From positions 45,229 through 109,228 of IMG/VR virus record IMGVR_UViG_3300023210_000015: 64,000 bases of DNA; one strand, written 5' to 3'. Positions 2,128 through 55,176 of this stretch are shown here, piece after piece; positions within the stretch are counted from its first letter, which is position 1; each line of letters starts with the position of its first letter. The notes beneath the pieces are model-generated. The model did not search any database. It was not told the DNA's origin and saw nothing but the letters and a program-made list of their open reading frames with translations. Both the position numbers and the translations under genes were made by a program. Source of the DNA: a virus.

Positions 2128-3015
2128 ATGGTTAAATACAACCAACAGAAACAAAAAAAAGAAGCACAGATCAAGCCTTATGAAAAAATGTTGCTAGATA
2201 ATCAAAATAAGTATGATACAGATGTTAAAGGCGACAAGATTGAAGATAAACTTCTCGAAGACGAGAGAGGCACCGATGGTGCAAAAGGTGATAAAATTTA
2301 TGAGAAGTTACAAGAGGATGTAAGAACTGGCTCTCCAGATAAAAATACAGAAGGACAGCTTAATGAAGGTTCGACCAAATATAATGACGCTGAACATCGC
2401 AGTGATGGTGGAGAACCATTGATGGATTATCATAAAAAGACGGAGAATGAAGAAATAGCTGATTTTACTAAGGCTAATTCTGGTATGAAAAGAGACAAGA
2501 TGTTTTGGGATAAATACGTTAATTCTCAGATTCCCCCAAAGGGTGGGAACGAAAGTCTCAATGAATTAACCAAGATTGTTGACAATGATCAGTCAAGTCA
2601 GCTTTTGTCCAATTATGATACGAGAGAAGAGATGAGAGAGGCCACACCAGCCGTAAAATCGGCTTCTGCTGACCTCAAAGACGCTGATGCTATCTTATAC
2701 CATATTTACAGAGAAGCGGCTGAGAACGGCAGGGAATTGACAGACCAAGAAAAACAAGCAACTGAAGAAATCAATAGTTATAAAACAAATACATTGGTGG
2801 AGTTGCAAAAAGAAGCTGTTTACTTTCCTCCCGGTGGCGAGCAAATGCCCACTTCACCTAATGGCGATATAAATTGGGCTTATTTCAGAGAACAGAAAAA
2901 GAAAGAAAAAGCACTAAAAGATAAAATTAAACGTGGGCCACCAAAAAAGGGGGAAGAAGACGAATGCGAACCTGGATCGCGTAAAAATCCATGCAGAGGA
3001 CCGAATGTAAAATAA
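2128..3015 (+). CDS. hypothetical, probable head-associated protein with (Y/T)EKxL repeats
   Basis: GGAG RBS; KKEAQ and VKSAS motifs; repeats PYEKML, IEDKLL, IYEKLQ, TEGQL. Confidence 0.6.
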   Translation: MVKYNQQKQKKEAQIKPYEKMLLDNQNKYDTDVKGDKIEDKLLEDERGTDGAKGDKIYEKLQEDVRTGSPDKNTEGQLNEGSTKYNDAEHRSDGGEPLMDYHKKTENEEIADFTKANSGMKRDKMFWDKYVNSQIPPKGGNESLNELTKIVDNDQSSQLLSNYDTREEMREATPAVKSASADLKDADAILYHIYREAAENGRELTDQEKQATEEINSYKTNTLVELQKEAVYFPPGGEQMPTSPNGDINWAYFREQKKKEKALKDKIKRGPPKKGEEDECEPGSRKNPCRGPNVK

Positions 3016-3245
3016 TGAAAATCATTAAATCAAAAAAAGTTGCTCAATATATTGATGAAGGTATCAAAAGACCGTTACATAGGGATGAAAAATTTAGAGC
3101 CACTGTTTATCTTGATGTGTTTGCAAAAGATAAAGTTGATGCTCAATCTAAATTGAATCAAATGCTTGAAAGTTTATACCCTGATTTAGATTTATTTACT
3201 ATTGTTGACGTTAAATCTTGGACTGAAATTAAAAACATTGGATAA
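3015..3245 (+). CDS. small hypothetical protein (MKIIKSKKVAQ...)
   Basis: TAATG coupling with the upstream stop; start re-assigned to 3015. Confidence 0.6.
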   Translation: MKIIKSKKVAQYIDEGIKRPLHRDEKFRATVYLDVFAKDKVDAQSKLNQMLESLYPDLDLFTIVDVKSWTEIKNIG

Positions 3246-3246
3246 A

Positions 3247-3774
3247 ATGAATTGGTATCATCAGATTAAAACTGCTATAAGGGGCAATCTGGAAAGAATG
3301 AACGATCCAGATACATATCCTTATCAACATTCTAAGCCCGGCGAAATTAGCGACGGGCAGCTTTCTTATTTGACACAATTCGGGGATGAAAGCGGGAATT
3401 CTGGCTCTGCATCTATTGGAGGTCGTAGATTCAGAAACAAAAAAGCCCCTCGTGATTGGAGTTCAAAATCGAATGAATATGACTGGGACGGTACTTCATC
3501 TTGGAAAATGGAAGATTTACCAGAATCCGATCATATGTTTGTTACAGATGATGATTCAACAATGATGGGGACAGGCAAGGGTGTAGACAGTACAACTAGA
3601 CAAGATTTTACCGATAGTAGAGATAGATTGCCAACAGATAAAGAAACTTTTGGCCCTGACCCTCGTGGTCCACACAATATGTGGAAACCGTGGGGCGATA
3701 ATCAGAAAAGAAAAAAAAGTTTATATGACAAAACGAGAGAGAGAGTGAAAGGAGCATATCATGGCCGAATATAG
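3247..3774 (+). CDS. MNWY-tagged hypothetical protein
   Basis: ATG at 3247 directly after the upstream stop gives MNWYHQIKTA. Confidence 0.65.
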   Translation: MNWYHQIKTAIRGNLERMNDPDTYPYQHSKPGEISDGQLSYLTQFGDESGNSGSASIGGRRFRNKKAPRDWSSKSNEYDWDGTSSWKMEDLPESDHMFVTDDDSTMMGTGKGVDSTTRQDFTDSRDRLPTDKETFGPDPRGPHNMWKPWGDNQKRKKSLYDKTRERVKGAYHGRI

Positions 3775-5067: not shown

Positions 5068-5069
5068 AA

Positions 5070-8096: not shown

Positions 8097-8326
8097 TGAA
8101 AACAATAAAAACTGCAAGATTTTCATCAAGAAGAGAACGTTTAACGGGTTTGCATGAACAAGCGACTGAAAAGTTCGAAGATTTATGTAATCGATTGGGG
8201 CTAAATAGATTGGATGTTATTGGGGATTTTCGGTTAGGAAAAAAACCTGAAAATGAAGAACTTGCTTTAGCTATAGATGATGTCATAAAATTACAAAATT
8301 TATTAGATATAGGTGATGAAATATAA
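8096..8326 (+). CDS. small hypothetical protein (MKTIKTA...)
   Basis: TAATG-coupled ORF. Confidence 0.55.
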   Translation: MKTIKTARFSSRRERLTGLHEQATEKFEDLCNRLGLNRLDVIGDFRLGKKPENEELALAIDDVIKLQNLLDIGDEI

Positions 8327-8966
8327 TTTAATGAAAACATTTTTAGGAAAAAAAGTAGCTCAGACCATGGTTAGTTGGGACGACCCCGAAGGGGAGCCTG
8401 AATCTATGTATCTATTTGACGATTATGGTCGAGCGGTTTACGATAAAGATGGAAGACAGGCAAGGACTGATGAAGTGCCAGAATTGAAAGGTGGGACTAC
8501 TCAATTCGGTGGAGATTTGCCCACTTTAACACCTTCTGATGTTATGGATAGCGATTATTTAGTTGACAAAAAAGAAGGAGAATTGCCTTCTGAAGAGGAA
8601 GAAGAGATAACGGAACCTGAAGAGATTCCTGAGTTTGGCTCTCTATTTCAGGCTTTCAGATGGGCTAAACACGAACAAAAAGTAATTAGGTTGTACTATG
8701 TGACAATTAATGGTGCTTATATCATTCGTGATATAGAACCTCATGGAGACTTTTGGGCGAGAACTACGCTCAAGAGAATTCTTGTCACTTGGGATGAAAC
8801 AGTAGGTGACATTAGAGCTTTTAGATTAGAGAATGTGCAAAAATATGAATTCACAGGAAAGCCGTTTGAACCTAAATTCAATTTTTCACAACGTCAGCAT
8901 ACTTACCGCAAACGAATGAGACGCAGAAAAGAAAGAAGGGAAAAAGCTCAACAAGGACTAATATAA
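8316..8966 (+). CDS. WYL-like domain protein with acidic N-terminal region
   Basis: IRLYY...IRDIEPH...LVTWD...DIRAFRLENV matches the WYL-domain pattern; KKVAQ near the N-terminus. Confidence 0.7.
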   Translation: MKYNLMKTFLGKKVAQTMVSWDDPEGEPESMYLFDDYGRAVYDKDGRQARTDEVPELKGGTTQFGGDLPTLTPSDVMDSDYLVDKKEGELPSEEEEEITEPEEIPEFGSLFQAFRWAKHEQKVIRLYYVTINGAYIIRDIEPHGDFWARTTLKRILVTWDETVGDIRAFRLENVQKYEFTGKPFEPKFNFSQRQHTYRKRMRRRKERREKAQQGLI

Positions 8967-8995: not shown

Positions 8996-10447
8996 ATGGA
9001 TTCTGCAATTAAAAAATTGGCAAAAATATCTACTCATTTAGATAAAATGGGTCAAGTCAAGGTTGCTGATAAACTTGATAAAATTTCAAGAAACATCTTA
9101 AATATTAAAACTGCTCAATATGTTGGAGTACAAGGATATTGGATGCGTAATCAGCGATGCTGGGGCAACTGCTATAGGCAAAAACGTTCCAACGAGCCGA
9201 ACAAGACAGCTCAAGAAGTCTGGATGTCATGTCATGATGAATATCTTAAATACATTAATGATCCTGAAAGCCTAAACAAAGAACATAGTTGGAATAAATA
9301 TGCTGATGAAGACGTTATTATAAAAACAGCCAGTGAAGAGGTTAAGGCAGCTTTAAAGTCTGAAGATGAGCGTTTCCATAAAGAATTACAAAAAAGAATT
9401 GCTCAAGGGGAAGAAATTCCTGTTGCTGTTTTCTCGTTAATTGATGAAAACCTTGATAAATATTCTTCAGCCATCATGGATGAAGTTGAAGAAATGTTAA
9501 AAGTCGCTAAGGTATTGGATAATCATGGCGGTAAGAAAATTGCAAAAGCTATTACCGATACTGCAAATGAGATCATAGAAGCTCAAGGCGGAATACGAAA
9601 TTGGTTTGGGCGCCAATACCAAAAAGGAAAAGACGCATTAACCTGGAGGGGGGAAAAGGGACAAACAGTTAGGGCTAGGGGCTTAGTCAACCAAACTTTG
9701 AAAATGGTTCAAAAAGCAGTAAAATCTTATACCGGTGGAGATCGTTCTGCTGGTGCAAAACTAAAAAATGATTTATTGAAACTTTTACCACAAATGGTAA
9801 AAATAGTTCACCCATTGCCTAACGGTGCGGATTTCGTTAATGCTGTTAAGGCGGTTGCCCAATCTTCTGGAACTGAAGGTATGAGGGCCGCTTTGAAATC
9901 CATGAGAGAAAAAGCTACTAATTTTACGGCTCAGTTAGCAGGATTAGAAGCTAAAGAGAAAGCAGCACCAAGATCAAAACCTGGGGCACCAGCGTTTCCA
10001 AGAAATAGACCAGCACCGACAGAGGCACCAGCAGGAACAGCGGCACCAGCAGGAACAGCGGCACCAGCAGGAACAGCGGCACCAGCAGGAACAGCGGCAC
10101 CAGCAACAGGAGCAACTACCGTAGATGATCATATCAAGAATCTGATAGCCATACGTACTTATTTCGCAAATATGCCGACAGGACTTGGTGGTTTAGAAAA
10201 ACCGATACAAATGATTATCGAATCATTGAGAGGAAAAAAGAATGCGACACCAGCGAAACCAGTGTCACCAGCGTCACCAGCGTCACCAGTAGCACCAACA
10301 ACAGCACCACCAGTGGCAGGTGTGGGTATACCAACTAAATCAGAACCGAAGCCAGCACCGGCAGAAAAACCATCAGGTGATTCGATGTACAAAAATCTGA
10401 GCAAAGAATTAAAGAATACTCTCAAGAAAATGGGAATAAATATATAA
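8996..10447 (+). CDS. hypothetical, probable internal head protein with APAGTA repeats
   Basis: Multiple KTAQ/KTAS/KVA motifs; Pro/Ala-rich linker. Confidence 0.6.
   Translation: MDSAIKKLAKISTHLDKMGQVKVADKLDKISRNILNIKTAQYVGVQGYWMRNQRCWGNCYRQKRSNEPNKTAQEVWMSCHDEYLKYINDPESLNKEHSWNKYADEDVIIKTASEEVKAALKSEDERFHKELQKRIAQGEEIPVAVFSLIDENLDKYSSAIMDEVEEMLKVAKVLDNHGGKKIAKAITDTANEIIEAQGGIRNWFGRQYQKGKDALTWRGEKGQTVRARGLVNQTLKMVQKAVKSYTGGDRSAGAKLKNDLLKLLPQMVKIVHPLPNGADFVNAVKAVAQSSGTEGMRAALKSMREKATNFTAQLAGLEAKEKAAPRSKPGAPAFPRNRPAPTEAPAGTAAPAGTAAPAGTAAPAGTAAPATGATTVDDHIKNLIAIRTYFANMPTGLGGLEKPIQMIIESLRGKKNATPAKPVSPASPASPVAPTTAPPVAGVGIPTKSEPKPAPAEKPSGDSMYKNLSKELKNTLKKMGINI
10025..10105 (+). repeat. 18-bp tandem repeat GCACCAGCAGGAACAGCG, 4.5 copies (encodes APAGTA)
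   Basis: Four perfect copies plus a 9-nt partial copy, read directly. Confidence 0.92.
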
Positions 10448-10523: not shown

Positions 10524-11192
10524 ATGGACGCAAAGTTCTATACAAACAAGATTAAAGTAGCGCAAGACCCAGATGGATTCCAGAATTTCGTCAAAAAGAT
10601 TCTTCATAAAGACGAAGAGGTTGTAAAGACCGCTTCTGCTGAAGAAGTCAAAACTGCCGAACAGGATGAAGCTGACAGTAGCGGTCAACCAGAAGCTGAA
10701 GCAAAATTAGTTAACACCCCTGAAAAGGAAGGTGGCAAAGGTAAGGGAAGCGCCGCTGGCGGCAAATGCTGCGAAGAAGGCGAAGATAGTGGACAACCTA
10801 AAGCCGAAGCCAAGTTAGTTAACCATCCTAAAGTAGAGTGTGAAGGCGAAGAAGAAGTGAAGACTGCTAAAGCCAAAGATGAGGACGAAGAAGAAGACGA
10901 AGATAAAGAAGAGAAGACCGCCGAAGTCAAAGAAGCTGGCGAATTGCCAGAAGCTTTGAAAAAGCATCAGTTTAAAGCTAAAGGCGATAAAGATGATGAT
11001 GACGACGACGATGACGACGATGATAAAGATGACGATAAGGATGACGACGAGAAGGAAGACAAAGAGGCTAAAAGCGTTATTAAGATCGAAAAAGTAGCTA
11101 AATTGAATTCGCCTACCCGCGAAATGTTGAAAGAATATTGGCTTAACATCTTCCCTCCTGAATATGTAGAAGCAATGCTTGCTGAAAAGTAA
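10524..11192 (+). CDS. highly acidic, probable head core/scaffold-like protein
   Basis: TAAGGAG RBS; about 8 K-x-A motifs; duplicated SGQPxAEAKLVN; poly-Asp tract. Confidence 0.6.
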   Translation: MDAKFYTNKIKVAQDPDGFQNFVKKILHKDEEVVKTASAEEVKTAEQDEADSSGQPEAEAKLVNTPEKEGGKGKGSAAGGKCCEEGEDSGQPKAEAKLVNHPKVECEGEEEVKTAKAKDEDEEEDEDKEEKTAEVKEAGELPEALKKHQFKAKGDKDDDDDDDDDDDKDDDKDDDEKEDKEAKSVIKIEKVAKLNSPTREMLKEYWLNIFPPEYVEAMLAEK

Positions 11193-11997: not shown

Positions 11998-12680
11998 TGA
12001 TTCAAAAGAATAAAAATTCCGAATCCATTAACTTCTTATTTAATGCTGTTACTGGTGGCGATCAAGAAGAAAAGATTGCTGAAAACGAAGAGAAACCACC
12101 AGTTAAGATAGAAAAGGCAAAGAAACTAGATAACAATGAAGCTGTTGCTTCTAGATTCAGTAATGCTATTTTGTCTGCTGGTCAAGGGAATATCACCAAT
12201 ATGGGTGGGCCACAGAAACAAATAGGTTCTGAGACGAACAATAGCATTTGGGATTCAGGAATTCTTGAAAAACTTGCGGGGACACCAAGTAATAAAGAAA
12301 AGACTATCGAATCGAAAGAGGAAATAGAAAATTTGCGTAATTCTATGAAATCTGGAAGAATAGACGAAATGGTAGAATCTCTAAAAGAAACAGATCAGCG
12401 CAAAGACGCTACTGTTACTGGAATGTCAGAGTATACCGAAAGAGATACAAGAGATTATAAGCTTCCTTCCAGAAATATTAGCATATTTGATACTAAAGAG
12501 GAAATGGATTTTCGCAGAGTGCCTGAGAAAACGGCTGGCGAACTGTCTATAGAAGAAGCCGGTATCCCAAAAGAAAAAGATGAATCTTGGAAAGATATCA
12601 AAGGCGCCCCTAGACTGAAAAATACATTAGATACATTATTTGACAATTTAACAAAAGAAGATGATCAAAATCAGCAATAA
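11997..12680 (+). CDS. hypothetical protein (head cluster)
   Basis: AGGAG RBS; coupled to neighbours. Confidence 0.6.
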   Translation: MIQKNKNSESINFLFNAVTGGDQEEKIAENEEKPPVKIEKAKKLDNNEAVASRFSNAILSAGQGNITNMGGPQKQIGSETNNSIWDSGILEKLAGTPSNKEKTIESKEEIENLRNSMKSGRIDEMVESLKETDQRKDATVTGMSEYTERDTRDYKLPSRNISIFDTKEEMDFRRVPEKTAGELSIEEAGIPKEKDESWKDIKGAPRLKNTLDTLFDNLTKEDDQNQQ

Positions 12681-14363: not shown

Positions 14364-14376
14364 AGGAAAATAAAAA

Positions 14377-17772: not shown

Positions 17773-17773
17773 T

Positions 17774-18199: not shown

Positions 18200-18410
18200 A
18201 AAATCCCGCAAACAAAAAGAGGATTTTTCTATCATCTTGTGTAATATGGAATTAAGCGAGACGCCCGAATTGTAATTATGCACTAGAACGAAAAGGGAAC
18301 AAATAGTCCTTAAAGTTTGATTAAATAGCAGATTTAAGCCCTTTTAAGAAATCGCAGTCAAGATGAACAGTAAACACGAAACTATTTTTTACACTGCGAA
18401 AGGGTAAAAT

Positions 18411-18770: not shown

Positions 18771-18781
18771 GGAAATTATTC

Positions 18782-25972: not shown

Positions 25973-25985
25973 TGGAGAATAAATT

Positions 25986-26534: not shown

Positions 26535-26620
26535 AAACAGGATAACTTAAGTCCCTTTGTTCTATAGTTTTAGGGTTTATGAGAATTAACGCCTAAAAGA
26601 TAGAAAAACAGGAGAATAAA

Positions 26621-27490: not shown

Positions 27491-27505
27491 TTAGTACAGA
27501 CTAAA

Positions 27506-32088: not shown

Positions 32089-32144
32089 CAACATATCTTT
32101 ATCTTTTGTCCTCTTAAGCCGAATATATATGTGAAAGCAGAAAG

Positions 32145-43380: not shown

Positions 43381-43437
43381 ATTTTTTTATCGGAACAAGT
43401 GAAGGAAAGAGAGGAGATAATTCGTAAGTATAGAAGT

Positions 43438-45549
43438 ATGGAGAATTTGTTTAAATTGGGTCAAGACATGCCGATAGAGCCTGCGCCCCAAGAAGGCGAA
43501 GTGCAACCTGTACAGCCTCAAATGGCTGGAGAATTAATCACATATGTTAACCATGGTAGAGCGGGTCTGTATTTGGCTGTTGAAATCAAAACCCAAGACC
43601 CCGAAGCCAAACAAGGCATTGTCACTAAATTAACGGTTGGATCAGATTATAGAGAATTTAGGGGCAAATTTACCAAATTAATAACAGAAGAAAATATTAA
43701 TACAGTACAATCGAATTTGGAAGAAGCGGCAGCAGCATATAATTTCACACTTGATCTTAGTGGATTACAATATGCCAGAGATACCCTATCGGCTGGCGAA
43801 ATAGATACTTCATCTCTCGTGGTGGCTGGCGATGTCGATGCGACACTCAAAAATATGCAGGAAAAACTGAGAGACGCAATTAGAAAAACGCCAGGAGATA
43901 AGCGTACTAAGATGATTTCTGGCCTTATTGACCAGCAATTAGAAACTCTTGAAAAAGCTGTTGATGACGAAACCAAATGGGAATTTTTGAAATCATTCTT
44001 GGCTCTTTCTCAAAGATTGTACAGATATAGTTTTGGCAACCAAATGCTTATTTGGTGGCAGACTGGCGGAAAAGCTGTTGATGTACAAGCGTTTAAAAAA
44101 TGGAAACAATTGGGTAGATATGTTAAAAAAGGAGCAACTGGAATTTCGATTTGGGTTCCTCTTAAAATAGATGCCAAAGATGCGTCGGGCAAAGTCATTA
44201 TGGACCCCGCCACAAAAGCCCCTAAAAAGAAATTAATCTTTGTAATCAAACCAGTTTTTGACATTGGGGATACGGCCAAATTCGAAGGCAAACAATTGGA
44301 GCGATGGAAGAAACAACATCCAGATGAAGAACCTTACGAAAGACCTCCTCGTGATGTTTGGATGAGCAAACAAAATGAAGATACAGACACTACGGTTACA
44401 CTTAGGGCTGCATTATTGTCGTGGATTGGGAAATTCGCCACAGATAAAGATTCTCCATATGCTGGCAGAAAAATTGATATCAACTTACATGCCGACACAG
44501 GGACTGCTGGCGGATGGTCTGCTGGTGGTAGGATTGAAATTGATAAAACCTCTGGTGGAGAAAGACAGCTATCTGCACTAATTCATGAACTTGCACACGA
44601 AGTTTTGCATTGGCAAGTTGATGGAACAAAATCAAAAGAAAAATATACAAAGAAACAGGTCGAAAGCGATGCAGAAGCTACGGCATTTATCGTTATGAAT
44701 GCATGGGGATTCAAATCTATTGAATATGTTGGAGCGTATATGAAATTATTGCGTATCGGTTCTAACCTGTTGAGAAGCAGAAGAAACATTGTTAATAAGG
44801 TTTCTCAAAACATTATAGAGGGCATGTGGAACGAAGTGCAGGCTATGAAGAATCAGGGTGATAACGTAGAAGCTAACTGGTATCATGATATAAAAATAGC
44901 AAAAATATTAGATTCTTTATTGAGTCCGATTAGTTCTATTGAAGCTAAAGTGTCTCATCCAAAGATGCTTAAAACCGCTTCTACGAAAGAGGCTAGAAGC
45001 AATATGGACCTTCCTGATGGTAAAACTGATAAAAAGATTTTTCAAAGAAAAAGTGACGCTCAAGCTTCTAATCAACATGGAAAATATTGTACCGTTTTTG
45101 ATGTGCAACGTTATGTAATGGATAGTTATATGTCCAAGGTCGCTCTTTCACAGACTAATGACAAGTTAACGGTATCTATTACTGTTGCTCACGGCTTCTT
45201 GGGTACAATTACATGGGATGAGTATTGGTACTATAATCTTGATGAAATGGATCAGGCACAAAAAACTTACAAAGCAGTAAACAAGATATTGAAAGATACG
45301 ATGGAGCAGTTCGTTGATGAAGAAATACCTACACCAATGTTTTGGGCTTTCTTGAAAAAGAAAACAGATGATGTCGATCCTGATGGAAGACAGCGCATCA
45401 ATATACCTGTTCTTAATTATGCTCGACAATATTCGGATTTACACAACCCTGACTGGCGTAGTAATTTGTATGGCACAAGATATCCAACTCACAAAGAAGA
45501 ATCTTATCGTCAATACTTAAACAGTCATGGACCGAATAGCCCAAAATGA
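43438..45549 (+). CDS. multidomain protein: ArdC-like N-terminal ssDNA-binding domain, zincin metallopeptidase and unknown domains
   Basis: YSFGNQMLI..Q....V..FKKW..LGR.VKKG..GI.I.VP...VFDI..T; LIHELAHEVLH...E..AEA.AF.V; internal NWYHDIKIA and LKTAS. Confidence 0.8.
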   Translation: MENLFKLGQDMPIEPAPQEGEVQPVQPQMAGELITYVNHGRAGLYLAVEIKTQDPEAKQGIVTKLTVGSDYREFRGKFTKLITEENINTVQSNLEEAAAAYNFTLDLSGLQYARDTLSAGEIDTSSLVVAGDVDATLKNMQEKLRDAIRKTPGDKRTKMISGLIDQQLETLEKAVDDETKWEFLKSFLALSQRLYRYSFGNQMLIWWQTGGKAVDVQAFKKWKQLGRYVKKGATGISIWVPLKIDAKDASGKVIMDPATKAPKKKLIFVIKPVFDIGDTAKFEGKQLERWKKQHPDEEPYERPPRDVWMSKQNEDTDTTVTLRAALLSWIGKFATDKDSPYAGRKIDINLHADTGTAGGWSAGGRIEIDKTSGGERQLSALIHELAHEVLHWQVDGTKSKEKYTKKQVESDAEATAFIVMNAWGFKSIEYVGAYMKLLRIGSNLLRSRRNIVNKVSQNIIEGMWNEVQAMKNQGDNVEANWYHDIKIAKILDSLLSPISSIEAKVSHPKMLKTASTKEARSNMDLPDGKTDKKIFQRKSDAQASNQHGKYCTVFDVQRYVMDSYMSKVALSQTNDKLTVSITVAHGFLGTITWDEYWYYNLDEMDQAQKTYKAVNKILKDTMEQFVDEEIPTPMFWAFLKKKTDDVDPDGRQRINIPVLNYARQYSDLHNPDWRSNLYGTRYPTHKEESYRQYLNSHGPNSPK

Positions 45550-45929
45550 ACTGGTATACTTTAATAAAATCCGCCGCCCCAATAGGGCCAAACATGCAAG
45601 GTCTAGGTTATCTCGCTATTGGTCATGATTTCGATGTAGGAATCGAAAATCATTTATGGTTTTTAACTCTCGATGGAGATTTTATTTCTAAATTATCTAC
45701 AGGGCCATATGATGTACACGCTGGATGGGACAAGTGGGTGAGAAATGATAATCTAGGGACTATTGTTTCGGAAGGAAGAGTCGAGTGTGTAAAGGGGCAA
45801 AATGGATGTAAAGCTTCTTTGGTTCTTCGTCAAACTTTAACTCCACACTATAAAGAATTTGCTAGAAAAAAATCCTCTAAGATGCTGGATGAGAAGTTCA
45901 ATAACCCGGAAATATTAGTGATGAGATGA
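45546..45929 (+). CDS. MNWY-tagged hypothetical protein; paralog of the N-terminal domain of 50769..51491
   Basis: Y..IGH, GR.E and LDEKF.NP.IL are shared. Confidence 0.65.
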   Translation: MNWYTLIKSAAPIGPNMQGLGYLAIGHDFDVGIENHLWFLTLDGDFISKLSTGPYDVHAGWDKWVRNDNLGTIVSEGRVECVKGQNGCKASLVLRQTLTPHYKEFARKKSSKMLDEKFNNPEILVMR

Positions 45930-48556
45930 ATTGGTATAAAACAATTTTTGCTGGGGCACAAGGAGATTATCTTCATTCGCTAGGAGCGAGTCAAGAAATC
46001 ATAGCTTATATTGTTTCTCAACCAAACATGCAATATCTCATTAATGCTTTTCGCAAGAATCCGCAGATGACATTAGAGCAAGTTAAAGAAATTAGCAATC
46101 CTAATAAAAGAGAATTAACAGAACTAGAATCTACGTTTATCGATACTTGTTGGGCCAATTCAGGGGTAGGAAAATGGGCGTTAATACAACTACAAAAAAT
46201 GTTTAGGACCGCTGAACGTACAGGTCAATCATTTTATCCTGATGTTTCGACAGCAATAGCTTACCGTTTAACTCTACAACATACTTGTGGCAGAATGAAC
46301 GAAGTCGGACAACAGTTCGCACAAATTGGAGACTGGGTTGTTCGTAGTGAAGACGAGTTCGATCTGTTAAATTATACCTATGAACAAGCCGTAGTCGCTT
46401 CTGATGCTTGGCATGAGCGAATGGCAAAAGGAGGAGCAGGAAAAGAATATGAAGAAAAAAATATTGTCTATGGACCAGAGTGGGTAAATAGGGGAGGGGA
46501 TAAGATCGACGAATTTGAAGGTTGGACCATACAAAATGTTAAAACTGCAAATGATTTAGAAGTAGAGGGACATTTGATGGATCACTGTTTTGCACCAGGG
46601 GCATTGGTAAGGACCAAGAGCGGATATAAGTCGATAGAAGACATCAAAACCGGGGAAGAAGTGCTATGTGAAGGGGGTGGTTTCAACCGGGTATTGAGAC
46701 TGTTCAAAAATCAATATAATGGGCCAATGATTAAATTTGCAACAAGGTTTGGCATCAAGGAAACATTGGTTACTTTAAATCATGAATTTGTGACCATGAT
46801 AAAAAACCAGAAACATTTTGAAAGTAAACACCAGTGTCGTAAACACATATGCGGACAGGTAAAACACAATTCAAACGAAATACATAATTTAAAGTGGGAA
46901 AAAATTGGCAATTTAAATTCATGGAGCTATTTACTGTCAACTGTTCCAAGGCAATTTGCTGATATCAATACTGTTAAAGTACCAGAGCAATATACAAATA
47001 GTAGAAGAAGAGGAAACAGGATATATACTGTGAATTCTGATTTTTTATGGATAATCGGCATGTTTATAGCAGAAGGGAGCGCTACTGGTGATCAAATTTC
47101 TTTTGGGCTTTCCAAGGATGAACGAAATTATGTAGATAAAATAATGTCATTCTTTACTGATAACGGATTTTATGCTAAAATTAGAAAAGATAAAGAAGAC
47201 TATGGTGGTATGGTTGTTGTTATAAGGAGTAGAATGCTTTCTGACTGGTTTTCAAATTGGCTAGGTAAAGGGTGCGATAATAAACATATCCCATCTGAGT
47301 TATTAAATCTCCCGAATGAGAAGGTGTATCACTTATATAAGGGGGTACTAGATGGAGATGGCTGTGAATCTCATAAGGTTTTAAATCAAACTTCGCCTGT
47401 TCTTGCTCTTCAGATGACAGAAATTGGTCTTCGACTGGGAATCGTGCCGACAATTTCTCATCGCACTAATAAGGGTAAAAAAGATACATATCCTATTGAG
47501 GGAATAGACACATCTTTAAGTTACAAAAAAAGTAAAGTTGAGAAACAAAATATATGGAACTTAGATAATAACCTGTTAATCCATCCACACGTATTCGAAA
47601 AGGTAAAATATACTGGTCCTGTGTATAATTTAGAGGTAGAAAACGTTCATTCCTACACGATACAAAACATATTAGTCCATAATTGTGTCGGTGGTTATTG
47701 TGATGATGTAGAACGTGGAGACTCAATAATATATTCATTGCGTGATCCTAAAAATATGCCTCATGTAACTATAGAGGTTGATGGTCATGAGGGCGGCGTA
47801 AATCAGGTGCAGGGTCACAGCAACAGTGAACCAAAAGATAAATATAAAGACATGATCAAACACTGGATTCAAAATGATAAAAATTCTCCTAAATTTATGG
47901 ATGATCCGGAAGAAGGTATACTTAAAGGATATTGGGAGTTAAGAAACTTAAGAGATATGAGTCCAAGATTGTTATTGGAATCCCTAGAGAGCCGTGTCGC
48001 TGGAGGAGATGAATATGGTCTGAGGCATGGTGATATTTATTATGATATGACAAATGTATTTGATCTTGCCTGGCGTTCTGTTGGAAAAAATGCACAGTAT
48101 GGCATGTATGCTGGCGATGGCGGTCTTGGTGAATTTATGGTTGAGGCTGCTTTAGATAGTGACGATTTATCTAAAGAAGATGATAATAAAAAATGTCTTC
48201 GTAGTCTTATTGACGAGATGACACAGGTGGAAGAAGATTCCAGAGACGAGTATCAACGACAGCATATAGATGTCGGTATTCCATATCCGCAAGAAGAAGA
48301 ATATGAAAACCCGGCAGAATATGAAGAAGCTTTGGAAGATTATCAAAAACAAGAGGATGAATTATTAAGTGGGATGTTCCCTTTTCCTTGGGTAACATTG
48401 CTTTGGCAAAAAATTCAAGAAAAATTTCAACAAAGATATGATCAAGATTTTACCAAATGGTATGAAGAGTACCAAGAACGAAGAAGAGAAGAGATGAAAG
48501 AACGAGAGAGACTGCGTGAACTAAACCGTGAACCAAAAACGATATTGGATGATTGA
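45926..48556 (+). CDS. MNWY-tagged PcfJ-like domain protein with an intein
   Basis: DL..EG..M.H|CVGGY...IYSLRD....PHVTIEV...QVQG..N..P. Confidence 0.78.
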   Translation: MNWYKTIFAGAQGDYLHSLGASQEIIAYIVSQPNMQYLINAFRKNPQMTLEQVKEISNPNKRELTELESTFIDTCWANSGVGKWALIQLQKMFRTAERTGQSFYPDVSTAIAYRLTLQHTCGRMNEVGQQFAQIGDWVVRSEDEFDLLNYTYEQAVVASDAWHERMAKGGAGKEYEEKNIVYGPEWVNRGGDKIDEFEGWTIQNVKTANDLEVEGHLMDHCFAPGALVRTKSGYKSIEDIKTGEEVLCEGGGFNRVLRLFKNQYNGPMIKFATRFGIKETLVTLNHEFVTMIKNQKHFESKHQCRKHICGQVKHNSNEIHNLKWEKIGNLNSWSYLLSTVPRQFADINTVKVPEQYTNSRRRGNRIYTVNSDFLWIIGMFIAEGSATGDQISFGLSKDERNYVDKIMSFFTDNGFYAKIRKDKEDYGGMVVVIRSRMLSDWFSNWLGKGCDNKHIPSELLNLPNEKVYHLYKGVLDGDGCESHKVLNQTSPVLALQMTEIGLRLGIVPTISHRTNKGKKDTYPIEGIDTSLSYKKSKVEKQNIWNLDNNLLIHPHVFEKVKYTGPVYNLEVENVHSYTIQNILVHNCVGGYCDDVERGDSIIYSLRDPKNMPHVTIEVDGHEGGVNQVQGHSNSEPKDKYKDMIKHWIQNDKNSPKFMDDPEEGILKGYWELRNLRDMSPRLLLESLESRVAGGDEYGLRHGDIYYDMTNVFDLAWRSVGKNAQYGMYAGDGGLGEFMVEAALDSDDLSKEDDNKKCLRSLIDEMTQVEEDSRDEYQRQHIDVGIPYPQEEEYENPAEYEEALEDYQKQEDELLSGMFPFPWVTLLWQKIQEKFQQRYDQDFTKWYEEYQERRREEMKERERLRELNREPKTILDD
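46586..47683 (+). mobile_element. intein with LAGLIDADG endonuclease in the PcfJ-like domain (366 aa)
   Basis: MDH|CFAPGALVRT; VTLNHEF; IGMFIAEGS and GVLDGDG; ends VYNLEV...LVHN|C. Confidence 0.9.
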
Positions 48557-48619
48557 ATTTAAACCGAATAAATAGGAACGAGGAAGAGAGTCGTTCTTTT
48601 CCAGAAAGGAGTCGTTCCT

Positions 48620-49084
48620 ATGGAAACAAGTAAATTGTACCCAGTTTTACTCACACTTCTAGATATTTGCAAAGAACGTAAAGGAAGAATGGACAAATCT
48701 CATTATACAGGCATTGCTTTAGCTAAAGAATTTTGCACAATAGAATTAAAGGCGTGTAGAGGAGCAGGACATACATTGGCTATTATCAATTTAGTACAAA
48801 GTAGATTTGACAAATCTATTATAATGGTCCCCTCAGAAAATCAAAAACACACATTGATTAGTTCTCTAGAATATTATGGTGTACCTGAAGATAGATATAG
48901 CATTTCGTGTGTTGGAAGTGGCAAATGTCGACAGGTCATGATGAGGGGCGTTGACTATAGCATGATTGATGCCGTACTCTGGGATTGTGCCTATACATTG
49001 ACCAATAAAGACAAAGATAATATGTATGCTGCTATATTGCCTTCTTGTGGAAGGAGTATACCTTATTTTATTTTTTTAGAATAG
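48620..49084 (+). CDS. small degenerate P-loop-like protein
   Basis: CRGAGHT and DAVLWD resemble Walker A/B remnants. Confidence 0.45.
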   Translation: METSKLYPVLLTLLDICKERKGRMDKSHYTGIALAKEFCTIELKACRGAGHTLAIINLVQSRFDKSIIMVPSENQKHTLISSLEYYGVPEDRYSISCVGSGKCRQVMMRGVDYSMIDAVLWDCAYTLTNKDKDNMYAAILPSCGRSIPYFIFLE

Positions 49085-49098
49085 AACTATAATGTAGT

Positions 49099-49818
49099 AT
49101 GGAACGTAAGAGTTTTTGTTTGGCAGAATTAATGATAGCCATTGGGATAATGGCTATTGGTCTGATAATGGCAGCAACTTTGTTTCCCGCTGCGATACGA
49201 GAACATAGCAGATCAGCGAGAAGCGTCATGGGGACAATTATCTCTGAAAATGCCTTAGAAACTGTTATGGCTACTCTAAAGCACCCTCTACAAGATAACA
49301 GTGGTACAATTGTCGAAGCGGATATGCTTAATTGTACGGAAAAAGTTCAACCACCTGAAGTTAGGAGATATCCAGCCGGTAGTGCGGATACAAAATTTGG
49401 TTTTCTCGTTTTCGCCAGAGTAAAGACCGAAGATAAAAACGACTATATCTTATCAATGGTTTCTTTTTGCAAATCAGACAAAGATAATACTATTGAGGCG
49501 ATAAAATTGACAGGTGTTACCATACCGTCAGGTGATAAAACTTTTGATATTAGTGGTTATGTGCCATCGGTTGGAGATAGATATAGAATTATTGGTTCGC
49601 CAGTAATAGCCCCCAGTGGTTATTACGCCACGATTATAGGCATTGATGGAGATAATGCTGTGTTAGATCATACGATTATAGGCGTTGATTCTGTTAATCC
49701 GTGGATTATTGTAGAAAAAAGTGGGGCTGCTTTTGCTGGCACTCGCAGTCCTGCTCTGATCGTATTTATGACACGTATGGCTTTGCCAACACGCCCAGCA
49801 GAGAAAGTGCCTGCATAA
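49099..49818 (+). CDS. prepilin-type N-terminal cleavage/methylation domain protein (minor pilin/pseudopilin-like)
   Basis: RKS|FCLAELMIAIGIMAIGLIMAATLFP, with Glu at +5 and a hydrophobic helix. Confidence 0.75.
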   Translation: MERKSFCLAELMIAIGIMAIGLIMAATLFPAAIREHSRSARSVMGTIISENALETVMATLKHPLQDNSGTIVEADMLNCTEKVQPPEVRRYPAGSADTKFGFLVFARVKTEDKNDYILSMVSFCKSDKDNTIEAIKLTGVTIPSGDKTFDISGYVPSVGDRYRIIGSPVIAPSGYYATIIGIDGDNAVLDHTIIGVDSVNPWIIVEKSGAAFAGTRSPALIVFMTRMALPTRPAEKVPA

Positions 49819-49824
49819 ACATTT

Positions 49825-50280
49825 CTAAGACGGTGCTAAAGTCCCGTGTATCCTCGGGACCAATTAGCAGCTTGTCGTCTAGCGAAAAGGCGATGTCGCG
49901 TGGTGTGTATCCTCGCCACAAAAAATGGATTCAGTGGCCCTAGACTAGACTGGGGCAAACCATGTATAAACTATGCAGATTACTCAATTACATGTATAGG
50001 CAGGAGAGAGACGCACCGGCTTGACTACTTCCCCGGTGTTATCGTTTGAATCCTGACGCTGCGATTGGAACTCGTTGGAGATAACAGCGTTAACAAATGA
50101 AAACTACCCGTATGGGATAATATCGTTGATATAGAGCTTTAAGCACAATGTCTTCTATATTATTGCTCCAGTAGTGAAGCCCACAATATACCATTGAGGC
50201 ATCACGCTTCCTTGCTTACTTTATTGTTTTTTAAAGTAAAAACTTGGAAGTAGATGTGCGCCAACAATGCCCATTTCGGC
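49825..50280 (+). ncRNA. candidate large structured RNA (unassigned)
   Basis: At least 8 consecutive stems, two with the identical loop TGTATCCT; internal G-U pairs favour the + strand; no credible ORF. Confidence 0.55.
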
Positions 50281-50325
50281 ATATATCTCTAAAGGAGAAA
50301 TTTATAATTCGGCGAAAATAATACT

Positions 50326-50772
50326 ATGAACTGGTATAAGTACGCCAATACGGAACGTAAAATCTTTAGAAATCCTGATAAAGCAACTTTTCAAGCTCTC
50401 TTGGCAGAATATAATGGTGGGATGAGAGGAGCATTGATGTTTACTGGTGATCTATATGTAGGAAATGGGGATTACCATAGTCATGCAGATTTGCTAAAAG
50501 GACTTAAAGGTATCAAAGGAAATGAGTTTTTTCGATTAAATATTGCTAGTATAAGTGAATTAAATGTTGAAATATGGTTAGATTATCATGAAATATTTGA
50601 AGACGAAGATGACCCTGATAGCAAAATAATTCTACCAGATTCATATGCAGTAGATGTGGCAAATAAAATCAAGGGAGCTAATGCTATAAAAAGAGCTTTT
50701 GGTACTCCTCCGCAAGTTAAAGTTATCGTTTACGATTACGATGCGTTTATACATATAGAAGAAACGATATGA
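50326..50772 (+). CDS. MNWY-tagged hypothetical protein
   Basis: Starts MNWYKYAN. Confidence 0.65.
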   Translation: MNWYKYANTERKIFRNPDKATFQALLAEYNGGMRGALMFTGDLYVGNGDYHSHADLLKGLKGIKGNEFFRLNIASISELNVEIWLDYHEIFEDEDDPDSKIILPDSYAVDVANKIKGANAIKRAFGTPPQVKVIVYDYDAFIHIEETI

Positions 50773-51491
50773 ACTGGTATAAAATATCAAGTCCTATTAT
50801 AGAAATAAAAGATAATCCTACCTACAGTGGTATAGGCCATGAAGGATGGGAGAGTTTTGATTATGATAAAGAAAAAGATCGATATTTTTATACTGGCGAA
50901 AGAGATTTCAGCAAATACAAACAGTACATATGGTTAATTGATAGAAAATGGGATTTTTACTCTTATGATGCAATAGATAATAAAGAAGAAGAAGGCAAAC
51001 AAACGTTGCGTAGTCACATGGATTTATTCGGTTCGAAAATGAGAAGTAAGAATTTTTATGCGGCTGGTAGATATGAACAGTCTGATGAATATCCTGAAGG
51101 AATGGTTAGTATGCAAATCTCTCTTGACATAGAAAATAATTTTTCTATATATCAAGCAGATCATATTATTAAGCGTGTAGAAAAGATTCTTGATGAAAAA
51201 TTCCATAATCCAATTATTTTACGTTATGGGAGTAGCGACAAAATCAAAAAGTATGCTCAATCTCCTATAGAACAAATTTTCTATGATCCTGACTATTGGG
51301 AACTAAAAATAAAGTTTAAGAGCGGACCAACAGTTTACACATATCAGAGTGTATCTCCGTTTGTTTATGAAAAACTTAGAATATTGCTTGGTAAACAAAA
51401 TTATCCTAAAGTAATGGAAATGCTTGGAAATCTATCTGACCAAGATGATAGCGAACAGCTAGAGCCTAAAGAACAACTCAAACTTTTTTAA
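50769..51491 (+). CDS. MNWY-tagged protein with a C-terminal KTSC domain
   Basis: KKYAQ|SPIEQIFYDP....L.IKFKSG..YTY..V...VY..L. Confidence 0.7.
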   Translation: MNWYKISSPIIEIKDNPTYSGIGHEGWESFDYDKEKDRYFYTGERDFSKYKQYIWLIDRKWDFYSYDAIDNKEEEGKQTLRSHMDLFGSKMRSKNFYAAGRYEQSDEYPEGMVSMQISLDIENNFSIYQADHIIKRVEKILDEKFHNPIILRYGSSDKIKKYAQSPIEQIFYDPDYWELKIKFKSGPTVYTYQSVSPFVYEKLRILLGKQNYPKVMEMLGNLSDQDDSEQLEPKEQLKLF

Positions 51492-52311: not shown

Positions 52312-52701
52312 ATGGAAAAGACAATTTTTAAAAATTTCGCAGAGTATTGGTGCTATGCTAAATGGTTTACAGATCATCAACGAGATATTATCCTGAGTAA
52401 TTTAGATGACACTCAAAGAAAAAATCTTATTAGTTCGTATAAGAATGGTGGCTGGGAAGATTTGGTAATAAGGGACGAACTCGATAAAAAAATAGATATG
52501 CTTAAAAAAAGCACGGGTATAGATTTATTGGCGTGTCGCTGTAAAATTATGAGCGGAAAAAGTGTACATATGAAAAAAGATGAGTGGGAGCTAATAAAAG
52601 AAATGTTTAAAAATTATAAAGCATCTCACACATATTACGTTTTAGGCGGTATAAAAACTGAAGAATTAGACAAACACGAGATACTATTAGTAAAGAATTA
52701 A
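52312..52701 (+). CDS. hypothetical protein
   Basis: GGGAG RBS before ATG 52312. Confidence 0.55.
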   Translation: MEKTIFKNFAEYWCYAKWFTDHQRDIILSNLDDTQRKNLISSYKNGGWEDLVIRDELDKKIDMLKKSTGIDLLACRCKIMSGKSVHMKKDEWELIKEMFKNYKASHTYYVLGGIKTEELDKHEILLVKN

Positions 52702-52788
52702 ACTTGTAAGAATTAGTCAAACATGGAAGGAAGATACTCCTTTTTATAGAAATATAGAGAGGAGTATTTTAGATAAGAGAGGATTCTT

Positions 52789-55176
52789 GTGTCTCTGAAT
52801 ACGAAATTTAATTTGCACAAATATGCTAGAATGATGATATTCGCCAATGAAGCCCTAAATTTCATTCAAGTTGAGGATAGGCTTGAACTAGAAAAGGCCG
52901 CTAGAGGCATTGGAATAGATCAGATTCCGGCATTAAATACATTTATTAAGGCCATTTCTGATAAACATACAGCAGGGGAAATTACTCCAGACCAAGCGTT
53001 TGAATTTATTTTAGCAAAAATACAAGAATTTCAAGCAGCAGTACAGCCAGAACCTCAACAACCAGTAGAACAGGCTCCTGTTCAAGAAGATCAAGAAGAA
53101 ATCCCAGAAGATTTTTGGCAAGGGAAGTTGATTTCTGAACCTAACTCTAGCGAATTCAAACAAAAGATGATAGAATATAAAGATTTGAACATCGTTCCAA
53201 GAAGAGCCGGTGGCAGACTTCCCGCTGCATATAATAGAGATGACACATTCTCTGATTTTTCAAAGCAATCAACTAAGTTTCTTTATAGTAACCCTGATGT
53301 AGTTGCCGATATCATGAAAATGATAGGCGGCGAAGGGGTAATGAACAATAGAAACTTCAATAACATTGAACAGTCCGTTAACAACGCAATTGAGGCAGGT
53401 CTTTCTCCTTCGTTCTATCTTGTTTCATATATGAAAAATGGTCAAAAGGTACAAGAAATCGAAGATCACAAAGATGGAAGAATAAGTTTTGTTTTGAGTA
53501 GTCCTAAGATATTTGAAGTATTTAACAATCGTTTCAAACAAGCTACTGGTGACGACTTAATTCAGAGGTTGAATGAGAACGGTGTCACTGAAATAAATGA
53601 TGTTACTTTGGGTAAAACGTTGCCATATAATGTTGTAGCTCAAACTTTAAAACAATATCCCAACAATGGTCTGACAGAGTTTATGGACGCTTTGATAGAC
53701 AAAAAATATGAATTGGTGAAAAAATGGATAGCTAGAACCGCTCGTTCTATTCTAGCTGGTGAATATTATGCTGGCTTCAAAACCAGATCATTAATCACAG
53801 AAACAAAAAGTGGGGACGAGTTTGAGTTGCCAGGCGAGGCTATTTCAGAACAAGGTCGCAAGATGAGTATTGAAGAGATGGAACAACAGAGGCAAACTGT
53901 AAAAGATTTTATGATGAAAAAGTTCCAAGGACTCAAAAAGATAGCCGATAAAGTGGTCGAAAAAATGGAACGAGCCGGTGACGCTGGTAATACCTCGAAA
54001 TACTTTAAGGCAGAGATTTTACAAAATCTTATTAATACATATCAAAATCAGTTGAGTGCCGTTCTCGACGAGGGCAACTTGACTAGTTTTAAAGACATGA
54101 TACAATTGAAGTCTACTGGTTCGTTTAGCGGTTACTTAAAAATGAATTTAGACCCAGAAAAAATGCGTGATGTAGATTTTAGAAAACTGATTACTGGTTT
54201 TAAAGGCAGAAAAAGCAAAGGTGGAGAACCAAACGTAGAAACAAATGTTCTTGATAGTTTTAATGAGGTTGTGAAGGGCAGAGTTGCCCTTATCCACGCT
54301 TTGCGTACTGAATTCGGCAGAAGTCACTCAAAACAATTCATAGCACAGCAAGCCGATATGAGCGTTGAACAATTAAATTATTTGCTATCCACGGGTCTTC
54401 AAGATTTGAAAACGCTGTATAGTATTCCAACAGAAGAAGAATATGCTGCGATGTTGGAAGAACGTCGCACGATAAGAGGAAGATTAGCAGATTATGTAGA
54501 AGCCCATCCTGATGCAACTCTTGAAAATTTAAAATCTGTTATGATTTTGGATATTATCAATAACGATTTTACAGGGGCGTTGAAAGATAAAGAGATAGTT
54601 GCTTTGATGAAGGATGTTAAAAAGCAAGGAGCAGATTCTTTTAAAGCATCTTTAGTTCCGAAACAACCGGAAGATATCACACAACAATACAATAAGTTGT
54701 TTAAACAAAAAGAGTTATATAAAAAGATTATTGGCGACACTCTAAGGTGGGACATGGCTAATTGGGTTGAGACTCTATTGGAAATGGTCGAAAGTGGTGA
54801 AGCCGATTATGACTCAATGAATTTATTCCTATCATTTATAAATCCTCACCGTACCATAAGAGAGGGAAGAAGGTATTCAAAGGCTACTCCTCTTTTGTGG
54901 AAGTTGTATGGTTTTAAGACATTTGAGGAATTGCCACCGGAGATACAAGAGGAATTGAGAAACAATGGTATTACATCTCTCCCTGAATCTACAGAGAAAT
55001 TGAGCATGTCTGAAAAAATGGTATTGTTTGCCTTTAATCGTGCCGAAAATAAGATTAGGAAACTATGGCACATGAAGCAGAACTTGACGAAAACGGCTAG
55101 TGTTATATCTATTGACAATAAGATAAAACAGGTGGCATCCGAAGCTCTTAAAGAAATAAGAACGTATAAAATATAA
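52789..55176 (+). CDS. large helical hypothetical protein, candidate internal virion protein
   Basis: N-terminal KFNLHKYAR; C-terminal TKTAS; own promoter-like box. Confidence 0.6.
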   Translation: MSLNTKFNLHKYARMMIFANEALNFIQVEDRLELEKAARGIGIDQIPALNTFIKAISDKHTAGEITPDQAFEFILAKIQEFQAAVQPEPQQPVEQAPVQEDQEEIPEDFWQGKLISEPNSSEFKQKMIEYKDLNIVPRRAGGRLPAAYNRDDTFSDFSKQSTKFLYSNPDVVADIMKMIGGEGVMNNRNFNNIEQSVNNAIEAGLSPSFYLVSYMKNGQKVQEIEDHKDGRISFVLSSPKIFEVFNNRFKQATGDDLIQRLNENGVTEINDVTLGKTLPYNVVAQTLKQYPNNGLTEFMDALIDKKYELVKKWIARTARSILAGEYYAGFKTRSLITETKSGDEFELPGEAISEQGRKMSIEEMEQQRQTVKDFMMKKFQGLKKIADKVVEKMERAGDAGNTSKYFKAEILQNLINTYQNQLSAVLDEGNLTSFKDMIQLKSTGSFSGYLKMNLDPEKMRDVDFRKLITGFKGRKSKGGEPNVETNVLDSFNEVVKGRVALIHALRTEFGRSHSKQFIAQQADMSVEQLNYLLSTGLQDLKTLYSIPTEEEYAAMLEERRTIRGRLADYVEAHPDATLENLKSVMILDIINNDFTGALKDKEIVALMKDVKKQGADSFKASLVPKQPEDITQQYNKLFKQKELYKKIIGDTLRWDMANWVETLLEMVESGEADYDSMNLFLSFINPHRTIREGRRYSKATPLLWKLYGFKTFEELPPEIQEELRNNGITSLPESTEKLSMSEKMVLFAFNRAENKIRKLWHMKQNLTKTASVISIDNKIKQVASEALKEIRTYKI

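Follow-up and report, generated by a model that had tools for sequence, protein, structure and literature searches.

The question raised by this locus is why one short peptide motif, K-x-A-(Q/S), should recur in so many proteins encoded around the head genes of a large phage, and whether it is a signal read by a phage protease. The locus is the final 64 kb of a 109-kb contig (IMG/VR record IMGVR_UViG_3300023210_000015; this whole 64-kb stretch is termed the window), and a sequence-only reading of it had proposed that a head protease encoded at 18782 cuts after K-x-A in proteins spread over the whole proteome. We find that the motif is real, that selection acts on the peptide, that it is specific to the head module and that it is conserved across the clade. 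In our view it is probably, although we hold this with some reserve, the cutting signal of an assemblin-fold protease that is split by an intein, fused to a scaffold-like protein and predicted to cut after the alanine. The proposed consensus is [LIVT]-K-x-A-[S/Q], in which R sometimes stands for K, S sometimes for A, and T sometimes follows the Ala.

Nearly all genes in the window lie on the + strand, where the order is terminase, a block of unknown proteins, portal (14377), the protease open reading frame (ORF; 18782), cement protein and capsid protein (26621). The protease gene is placed between the portal and major capsid genes, as it is in Bacillus phage G, Gordonia phage Stormageddon and mycobacteriophage Alice. 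CheckV gives the 109-kb contig a completeness of 23%, from which a phage of roughly 450 kb or larger would be expected. With the capsid protein as query, over 80 related viral contigs were found (68-91% identity), and some of them are complete genomes, 461-548 kb in length. The nearest cultured relative is phage G, the gp27 capsid protein of which is 53% identical to that of the window. A near-identical search of the DNA from 14000 to 34000 against cultured phages gave no match.

The motif occurs 40 times in 19 818 residues, against 10.6 ± 3.2 expected from 2000 shuffles of each protein, among which the maximum was 23. As a guard against hindsight, ranking scans that were blind to the motif were run over several pattern shapes. 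K.A (the point being any residue) ranked first of 400 a.b patterns, with 176 occurrences against 110 expected, and K.AQ and K.AS ranked first and second of 8000 a.bc patterns; KTA was the top abc pattern and IK.A the top ab.c pattern. Codons are mixed at every motif position, and the 40 in-frame hits compare with 0-7 in each of the other five frames of the same genes. Because the codons are mixed and the excess is found only in the genes' own frame, selection must act on the peptide and not on a DNA word; the same two observations rule out a promoter, a repeat or a methylation site.

The excess belongs to the head module (2128-25972), which holds 31 sites against 4.9 ± 2.2 expected, a count reached by none of 3000 shuffles. 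When the giant ORF at 18782 is left out, 15 sites remain against 3.2 expected, and again no shuffle of 3000 reaches 15. The other 45 ORFs of the window hold nine sites against 5.9, a non-significant difference (that count is attained by 421 of 3000 shuffles), and the 45 kb of the contig upstream of the window hold ten against 5.3. With the rest of the window at background, the sites at 31831, 43399, 50769 and 52789, taken singly, are indistinguishable from chance. The examples listed in the sequence-only reading were all found at their genes and the enrichment over composition-shuffled controls that it anticipated was recovered, but its description of the motif as proteome-wide does not hold, since enrichment is limited to the head module and some small gene islands. 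The sites and their genes, with positions given as amino acids (aa) of the protein, are as follows.

2128-3015, + strand: protein with KKEAQ at aa 11 and KSAS at aa 177; few homologs, weakly conserved
2991/3015: KKVAQ
8313-8966, + strand: small protein with N-terminal KKVAQ at aa 14 (8352-8363), kept in 7 of 14 homologs
8996-10447, + strand: protein of unknown function with IKTAQ at aa 38 (9107-9118) and IKTAS at aa 110 (9323-9334)
10524-11192, + strand: acidic head-module protein with IKVAQ at aa 11 and a conserved VKTAS at aa 35 (KTAS, 10626-10637)
12661-13905, + strand: portal-adjacent protein with FNL-x-K-x-A-Q at aa 99 (LKIAQ, 12955-12966) and aa 251 (QKTAQ, 13411-13422), and SKTAS at aa 402
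14377-17772, + strand: portal protein of 1131 aa, which has an intein-like insertion and, at its C-terminus, a DUF559 domain; SKTAQ at aa 56 and IKEAQ at aa 1096
14542-14553, + strand: portal site KTAQ (aa 56-59), where a variable N-terminal segment gives way to the conserved core
18782-25972, + strand: giant ORF, 2396 aa, with 16 K-x-A-(Q/S) sites against 1.75 expected, including VKFAS at aa 31, DKVAQ at aa 1244, VKEAQ at aa 1370 and IKTAS at aa 1663
31831: SKEAQ
43399: LKTAS at aa 525
50769: KKYAQ at aa 161, four residues ahead of a Pfam KTSC match (aa 165-204)
52789: TKTAS at aa 768

Searches of Pfam and PHROGs with the carriers at 2128, 8996, 10524, 12661 and 52789 returned no families. 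The sites had also been described as lying near N-termini or at domain junctions. Conserved boundaries in the portal, in its neighbours and on either side of the protease bear this out; the N-terminal bias itself is modest, with 8 of the 15 head-module sites outside the giant ORF falling in the first 60 residues, which make up 23% of the residues (p = 0.011). A profile of all K-x-A occurrences in the head-module families shows L at P5, I, V or T at P4 and T or V at P2, and the residue after K-x-A is preferentially S (3.1-fold) or Q (2.9-fold).

A complete 488-kb relative (G001) was used as a genome-wide comparison. Its 260-300 kb region, which holds the portal and capsid genes, contains 31 sites against 8.0 expected (p = 5e-10). 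Two smaller regions are also enriched, at 460-480 kb (11 against 2.5) and at 220-240 kb (seven against 1.9), and it is in these outlying islands that the ORFs of this genome beginning with MNWY are found. Outside the three regions the genome is at background (50 against 44.9), and its non-head proteins show neither an excess of K-x-A nor the flanking-residue preferences.

For the family counts, about 140 related loci were gathered with the portal and capsid proteins as queries, and their ORFs were grouped by best-matching window protein; the 8996 protein as a query yielded no confirmed locus. The counts that follow are descriptive only, the homologs being related sequences and not independent events. 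Against expectations of 0.48, 0.29, 0.31, 1.4 and 0.36, the mean number of sites per protein is 3.5 in the 8996 family (n = 47; 94% have a site in the first 60 aa), 3.0 in the 12661 family, 1.8 in the 10524 family, 9.3 in the giant ORF family, where 71 homologous ORFs hold 6-23 sites each, and 1.5 in the portal family. In the alignments the K, A and S/Q columns are fixed while the middle residue and the flanks change, and the same motif recurs in proteins without detectable mutual similarity. The major capsid protein lacks the motif in the window copy and in 73 non-identical homologs, against 9.5 sites expected in total. The terminase and cement protein families have no sites or are at background. 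The genes concerned are as follows.

128-2047, + strand: large terminase
25986-26534, + strand: cement or decoration protein, no sites
26621-27490, + strand: major capsid protein, 289 aa, no K-x-A-(Q/S)

Directly 3' of the major capsid gene lies a large HNH or homing endonuclease gene (27579-29303; PHROG 3339, E = 2e-106), and the G+C content is raised (0.44) across 24-32 kb of the window.

The giant ORF is central to the interpretation of the motif. Its layout is an N-terminal propeptide, a protease split by an intein, and a scaffold-like remainder of about 1700 aa that is acidic, rich in repeats and partly coiled.

18872-18883, + strand: site KFAS, aa 31-34, directly ahead of the protease fold
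18899-19243, + strand: protease fold before the intein, aa ~40-154, with a conserved NHQ His and ending in the GTSMG Ser motif
19244-20371, + strand: intein with LAGLIDADG domain, aa 155-530
20372-20686, + strand: protease fold after the intein, including a conserved Cys/His cluster
20696-20707, + strand: site KVAT, aa 639-642, directly past the last strand of the protease fold
22889-22900, + strand: site KEAQ (aa 1370-1373), with a conserved Gly-rich stretch after it
23768-23779, + strand: site KTAS, aa 1663-1666

The intein was placed at 19244-20371 because residues 155-530 are missing from most homologs, match LAGLIDADG and intein-splicing families, and have fitting borders, starting with Ala after G-T-S-M-G and ending V-H-N before a Cys. 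Judged from ORF length, some relatives have inteins at or near the same position of the protease. Searches of the protease domain against PDB chains, by single sequence and by profile, gave only chance-level matches, so that a fold search was needed to identify it. An AlphaFold model was made from an intein-free homolog; its predicted local distance difference test score (pLDDT) is about 84-96 over aa 40-250, and the model is disordered at aa 1-38 (pLDDT below 50) and past about aa 255. All of the Foldseek matches listed (ranks 1-50) are to T4 gp21 or a herpesvirus assemblin, with probabilities of 0.75-1.0 and a best E value of 2.3e-3. VIA-align gave Z scores of 8.8 for T4 gp21 (128 aa, root-mean-square deviation 3.2), 8.3 for the varicella-zoster virus protease and 8.2 for the pseudorabies virus protease. 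The intein-free N-terminal 300 residues of 23 homologs align well, and His98 (NHQ) and Ser149 (GTSMG) are invariant among them, 51 residues apart, with the intein inserted directly after the Ser motif. Pfam Peptidase_S78_2 gave sub-threshold matches in 9 of the 23 homologs, with E values down to 5.6e-4, and Peptidase_S78 in one of the 23 (E = 0.09); the Pfam matches of the window's own giant ORF are only to intein families. Homologs sharing about 30% identity are encoded by cluster C mycobacteriophages, by Stormageddon and Rhodococcus phage E3, and by jumbo phages of Erwinia and Dickeya, and GenBank/RefSeq labels those of Stormageddon, E3, Erwinia Alexandra, Dickeya JA29 and Xanthomonas PhiXhv-12 as capsid or head maturation proteases or prohead proteases. 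Taking the fold search, the alignments and the intein-family matches together, the N-terminus of the giant ORF is, as modelled, a head protease split by an intein and with the assemblin fold, that of the capsid maturation serine proteases T4 gp21, HK97 gp4 and herpesvirus assemblin, in keeping with the original proposal for 18782.

Within the protease fold there is a cluster of Cys and His residues, C-x-x-C-H ... C-x-H ... C-P-x-C ... N-P-A-C-H-x-C (aa 159-244 of the homolog in locus L006), which looks like one or two zinc sites; we know of no comparable sites in gp21 or the herpesvirus assemblins. About six imperfect [NR]-[VI]-I-T-E-K-Q-[LW] repeats, some 18-30 residues apart, lie further on at about 21370-21740 (aa ~865-985), and I-T-E-K-Q-L repeats are also present in relatives whose ORF begins downstream of the protease.

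Conservation of the sites in the giant ORF was scored on a subset of 27 homologous sequences. The KFAS site is kept in 21 of the 27 and is a candidate N-terminal self-cleavage site, lying near the end of the segment that is disordered in the model. At the other end of the fold, the site near aa 639 reads K-K-V-A-S in most homologs, with a cluster near window aa 635 in 14 sequences, and its position makes the KVAT of the window a candidate release site. In the remainder, the aa 1370 column is K-x-A-[QS] in 20 of the 27 sequences and [KR]-x-A-Q in 24, and the aa 1663 site is present in 18. Neither of the two sites inside the intein, aa 465 and aa 517, is conserved. When the final 170 residues of the 27 homologs were aligned, a conserved C-terminal domain was seen but no conserved K-x-A-[SQ].

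Other members of the head module carry the motif at comparable places. Portal homologs read P-[IL]-T-K-x-[AS]-Q at the aa 56 site; that Ser now and then takes the position of Ala is consistent with a pocket that accommodates small residues. The aa 38 site of the 8996 family, IKTAQ, is nearly invariant and stands ahead of a conserved Cys-rich domain. Of 40 homologs in the 12661 family, 39 keep site 251 and 30 keep site 99. The pLDDT falls below 50 in the segments that hold sites 99, 251 and 402 (82-128, 247-260 and 397-414), and a fourth site, at aa 235, is inside a confident helix. With regard to the portal itself, the insertion at aa 360-701 (about 15455-16479) is intein-like and starts with Cys, and several relatives also seem to carry portal inteins, at the Y-Q-W position. 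The protein is 1131 aa long, compared with about 755 in a complete relative, and has a divergent C-terminus with a DUF559/Vsr-like endonuclease domain (about 17335-17595).

The layout of K-x-A is the same P3-x-P1 arrangement as in the assemblin-fold proteases compared below. Of these, the herpesvirus assemblins cut x-x-Ala|Ser/Thr, which makes cutting after Ala plausible, and by analogy with them the scissile bond most likely follows the Ala. We envisage that the intein would first splice out of the protease ORF and that the protease-scaffold fusion would then be built into the prohead. There the protease would release itself at the sites flanking its fold, aa 31 and about aa 639, and would go on to fragment the scaffold-like remainder, with aa 1370 and aa 1663 as example sites. 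The portal N-terminus would be trimmed at aa 56-59, and segments of the 8996, 10524, 12661 and 8313 proteins would be removed or separated.

A second part of the interpretation concerns short N-terminal tags. Across the window and related loci, 50 distinct and otherwise unrelated ORFs begin with MNWY, and five of these belong to the window. K-x-A often follows at once or a few residues on, as in MNWYKKAQ, MNWYRIAQ and MNWYHRLKLAQ. The tagged ORFs of the window, and a protein with an internal NWY sequence, are as follows.

3247-3774, + strand: ORF starting MNWYHQIKTA
43399-45549, + strand: protein with ArdC-N and an HExxH zincin, with an internal NWYHDIKIA and with KTAS in the linker before its C-terminal domain
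45546-51491, + strand: four MNWY-tagged ORFs, at 45546 (127 aa), 45926 (PcfJ-like), 50326 and 50769 (KTSC domain)

ArdC-N is typical of proteins that accompany transferred DNA (PMC5512222). By analogy with T4, tags ending in K-x-A (MNWY, FNL and M-x-x-x-K-x-A) probably act like capsid targeting sequences; they would bring otherwise unrelated proteins, such as the ArdC-like, PcfJ-like and KTSC ones, into the head and would afterwards be cut away. The sequence-only reading had counted 20 or more tagged proteins, which is too many for the window: there are about eight head-module carriers, the five MNWY-tagged ORFs and two or three FNL or M-x-x-x-K-x-A starts. In the complete relative, the MNWY ORFs at 225-229 kb and 462-471 kb (loci L098 and L110) are remote from the head module, and one 245-aa protein of these islands has four K-x-A-(Q/S) against 0.17 expected; possibly these are cargo islands. 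The PcfJ-like protein (45926-48556) holds a Hint/LAGLIDADG intein at aa ~220-590 and is one of three intein-bearing genes in the window, the others being the giant ORF and the portal with its intein-like insertion.

Phage G has the same gene order as the window (portal gp14, protease gp19, decoration gp26, capsid gp27), with the difference that gp19 is a separate 300-aa gene, whereas the protease of the window is fused to the scaffold-like remainder. The first 30 kb of phage G, its head module, hold 14 sites against 4.3 expected, and the capsid protein has none. One site, at aa 55 of the portal, matches the portal site of the window, two lie right after the fold of gp19 (aa 248 and 274) and five are in gp7. 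Its small proteins gp13 and gp38 start MKRLI-[SK]-K-[TA]-[AS], and gp17, gp9, gp10 and gp20 have a looser R-L-[IK]-K-K; from these sequences MKRLIKK[AT] looks like a different N-terminal tag with the same role as MNWY. Stormageddon has [KR]-x-A-S in its portal (five against 1.5) and right after the protease fold, which is suggestive. Stormageddon and Alice (135-155 kb) share with the megaphages a module made up of the portal, a large protease fusion of 1089 and 1511 aa respectively, a small protein and the capsid protein, and their capsid proteins are about 25% identical to that of the window.

Several observations weigh against a reading of the motif as the cutting signal of this protease. 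Cleavage, the position of the bond and packaging are read from the sequences and predicted structures of uncultured phages, and the scissile bond is placed by analogy. Fold searches gave moderate scores (Z 8-9, Foldseek E about 2e-3), and the curated Pfam cut-off was reached by no protease family, the best listed match scoring 16.2 bits against 24. Some conserved occurrences resemble parts of folded domains, namely aa 1734 and aa 1772 of the giant ORF, where the residue after Ala is variable, and a K-x-A-x at aa 70 of the 8996 protein; the family counts carry the limit of relatedness given above. The replication region of phage G, taken as a control, is also mildly enriched (12 against 5.4), which makes the head contrast weaker there. 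Alice has a homologous protease and no enrichment of the motif. Finally, only 32 of 64 MNW-start ORFs have K-x-A within the first 14 residues, and in many MNWY tags N, K, I or A follows in place of S or Q; the MNWY tag and the cleavage motif may be separable. Because of these last two points we rate the targeting half of the model as less certain than the cleavage half. The claim on specificity is limited to the phage-G-like clade, since Stormageddon is only suggestive and Alice is unenriched.

The alternative that survives best, unlikely as we consider it, is that the motif is an uncut docking signal for the scaffold, the portal or the inside of the capsid, marking head-resident proteins only. 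Enrichment and conservation would fit any functional short motif, cleavage is something that we infer, and half of the MNW-start ORFs have no nearby K-x-A. Tags of the MNWYKKAQ type would leave only a 7-residue peptide, the removal of which is not obviously needed; T4 Alt, however, loses just seven residues. Docking also needs no particular placement, whereas the sites flank the protease fold on either side and occupy flexible linkers between domains, as self-release and processing predict, and the P3-x-P1 layout with a small residue followed by Ser matches the cleavage sites of assemblin-fold proteases.

It is improbable that the motif is a cleavage site for some other protease, either a host enzyme or a phage peptidase such as the HExxH zincin at 43399-45549. 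The window does encode this ArdC-type zincin, phage G gp2 is annotated as a 'zinc-dependent peptidase', and the tie between the assemblin-fold domain and the motif is not biochemical. Nevertheless, in most homologs it is the assemblin-fold domain that has the motif on either side, and the motif tracks the portal-to-capsid module across the clade, and Ala at P1 is known for this fold.

Very improbable, in our judgement, is the absence of any shared function, the motif being a by-product of helical, Lys/Ala/Gln/Ser-rich scaffold-like sequence and of the shared ancestry of the homologs. Shuffles that preserve composition never came near the observed count, the motif recurs in dissimilar proteins with K, A and S/Q fixed while their neighbours vary, and the capsid family has none of its 9.5 expected sites. 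It is true that several carriers are helical and charged, that some conserved occurrences lie inside folded domains, that relatedness inflates the homolog counts and that the non-structural region of phage G has a twofold excess; site 235 of the 12661 protein is in a confident helix, but the best-conserved sites are in low-confidence linkers. A modification site, such as a Ser phosphorylated with a basic residue at -3 or a modified Lys, is scarcely credible, for although [KR]-x-x-S is a common basophilic kinase layout and Stormageddon has only the Ser form, Gln, which is not phosphorylatable, replaces Ser in nearly half of the sites (including the best-conserved ones, portal 56, giant ORF 1370, 8996 site 38 and 12661 site 251), and Ala is as conserved as Lys.

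Returning to cleavage by the assemblin-fold protease, a broader proposition can be advanced tentatively, as possible rather than probable: that phage-G-like megaphages possess an assemblin-fold protease with herpesvirus-like specificity for Ala at P1, and that K-x-A together with portable tags (MNWY, MKRLIKK) forms a readable code. If so, the code would allow every protein that enters the head, and is probably injected, to be listed from sequence, with ArdC-like anti-restriction proteins among them, and would make readable the head cargo of an uncultured marine clade of 450-550 kb phages, the proteins of which are otherwise unannotated. The phage enzymes of this family that have been characterised, those of T4, phiKZ and SPN3US, cut after Glu, and an Ala-cutting one would be added to them; small-residue cutting would then be an old trait common to phage and herpesvirus capsid proteases and not a herpesvirus speciality, and the link between capsid maturation in the two groups would be tighter. 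Phage G is cultured and carries a version of the motif, so that the idea is testable by virion proteomics.

A search of full-text literature found no report of a K-x-A head-protease motif, although earlier publication remains possible. Among known systems, that of T4 is similar in its protease fold, gp21 being the top structural match, and in having one short motif on portal-side, scaffold and internal proteins. The T4 proteins with capsid targeting sequences are IPI, IPII, IPIII and Alt. T4 gp21 removes capsid targeting sequences of 10-19 residues, ten residues being enough for head loading, and the Alt propeptide has only seven residues (PMC9026906); in the window too, some of the short N-terminal tags on unrelated proteins end in K-x-A, and they are as short as these 7-19-residue propeptides. 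The ArdC-like candidate cargo is of the anti-restriction type, as is T4 IPI, an injected anti-restriction protein (PMC9026906). The systems differ in that T4 cuts after Glu, at L/I-x-E (PMC9026906), whereas the fixed residues of the window motif are Lys and Ala. T4 also cuts its capsid protein gp23, whereas the capsid protein of the window carries no site, and its protease is separate and small, whereas in the window an intein splits the protease and about 1700 aa follow it in the same ORF. In contrast to T4, the system of the window is known from sequence and predicted structure alone.

The head protease motif of phiKZ is (S/A/G)-x-E. The phiKZ gp175 and SPN3US gp245 systems are alike in that a single protease motif marks many head and ejection proteins of a giant phage and has been used to predict substrates. 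The gp245 motif is A-x-E, with Ser preferred after the cut (PMC10052503), a preference at P1' which the window motif shares. These phages differ from that of the window in their Glu-ending motifs and their lineage, and their cleavages have been seen by mass spectrometry.

The herpesvirus pUL26 system shares the assemblin fold (Z about 8) and a protease N-terminal to a long scaffold-like protein. In pseudorabies virus the assemblin is likewise fused ahead of the scaffold, with sites given as YLQA-T and VQA-S (PMC4498786). The herpesvirus maturation site is near the C-terminus, whereas none is conserved there in the 27 homologs of the window protein; P3 is hydrophobic, compared with Lys in the window phage, which would also accept Gln after Ala; and in the window phage the motif is carried by many separate putative substrate proteins. 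The herpesvirus protease frees itself at a site behind the protease domain (PMC4498786), and it is right past this domain, where that release site lies, that the window phage and its relatives have K-[KV]-V-A-[ST]. Herpesvirus assemblins cut after Ala and before Ser/Thr (PMC4498786), and the window motif has the same fixed small residue, Ala, followed by Ser or Thr. By this analogy, the herpesvirus rule is a closer precedent for the window motif than are the Glu-ending motifs of T4 and phiKZ.

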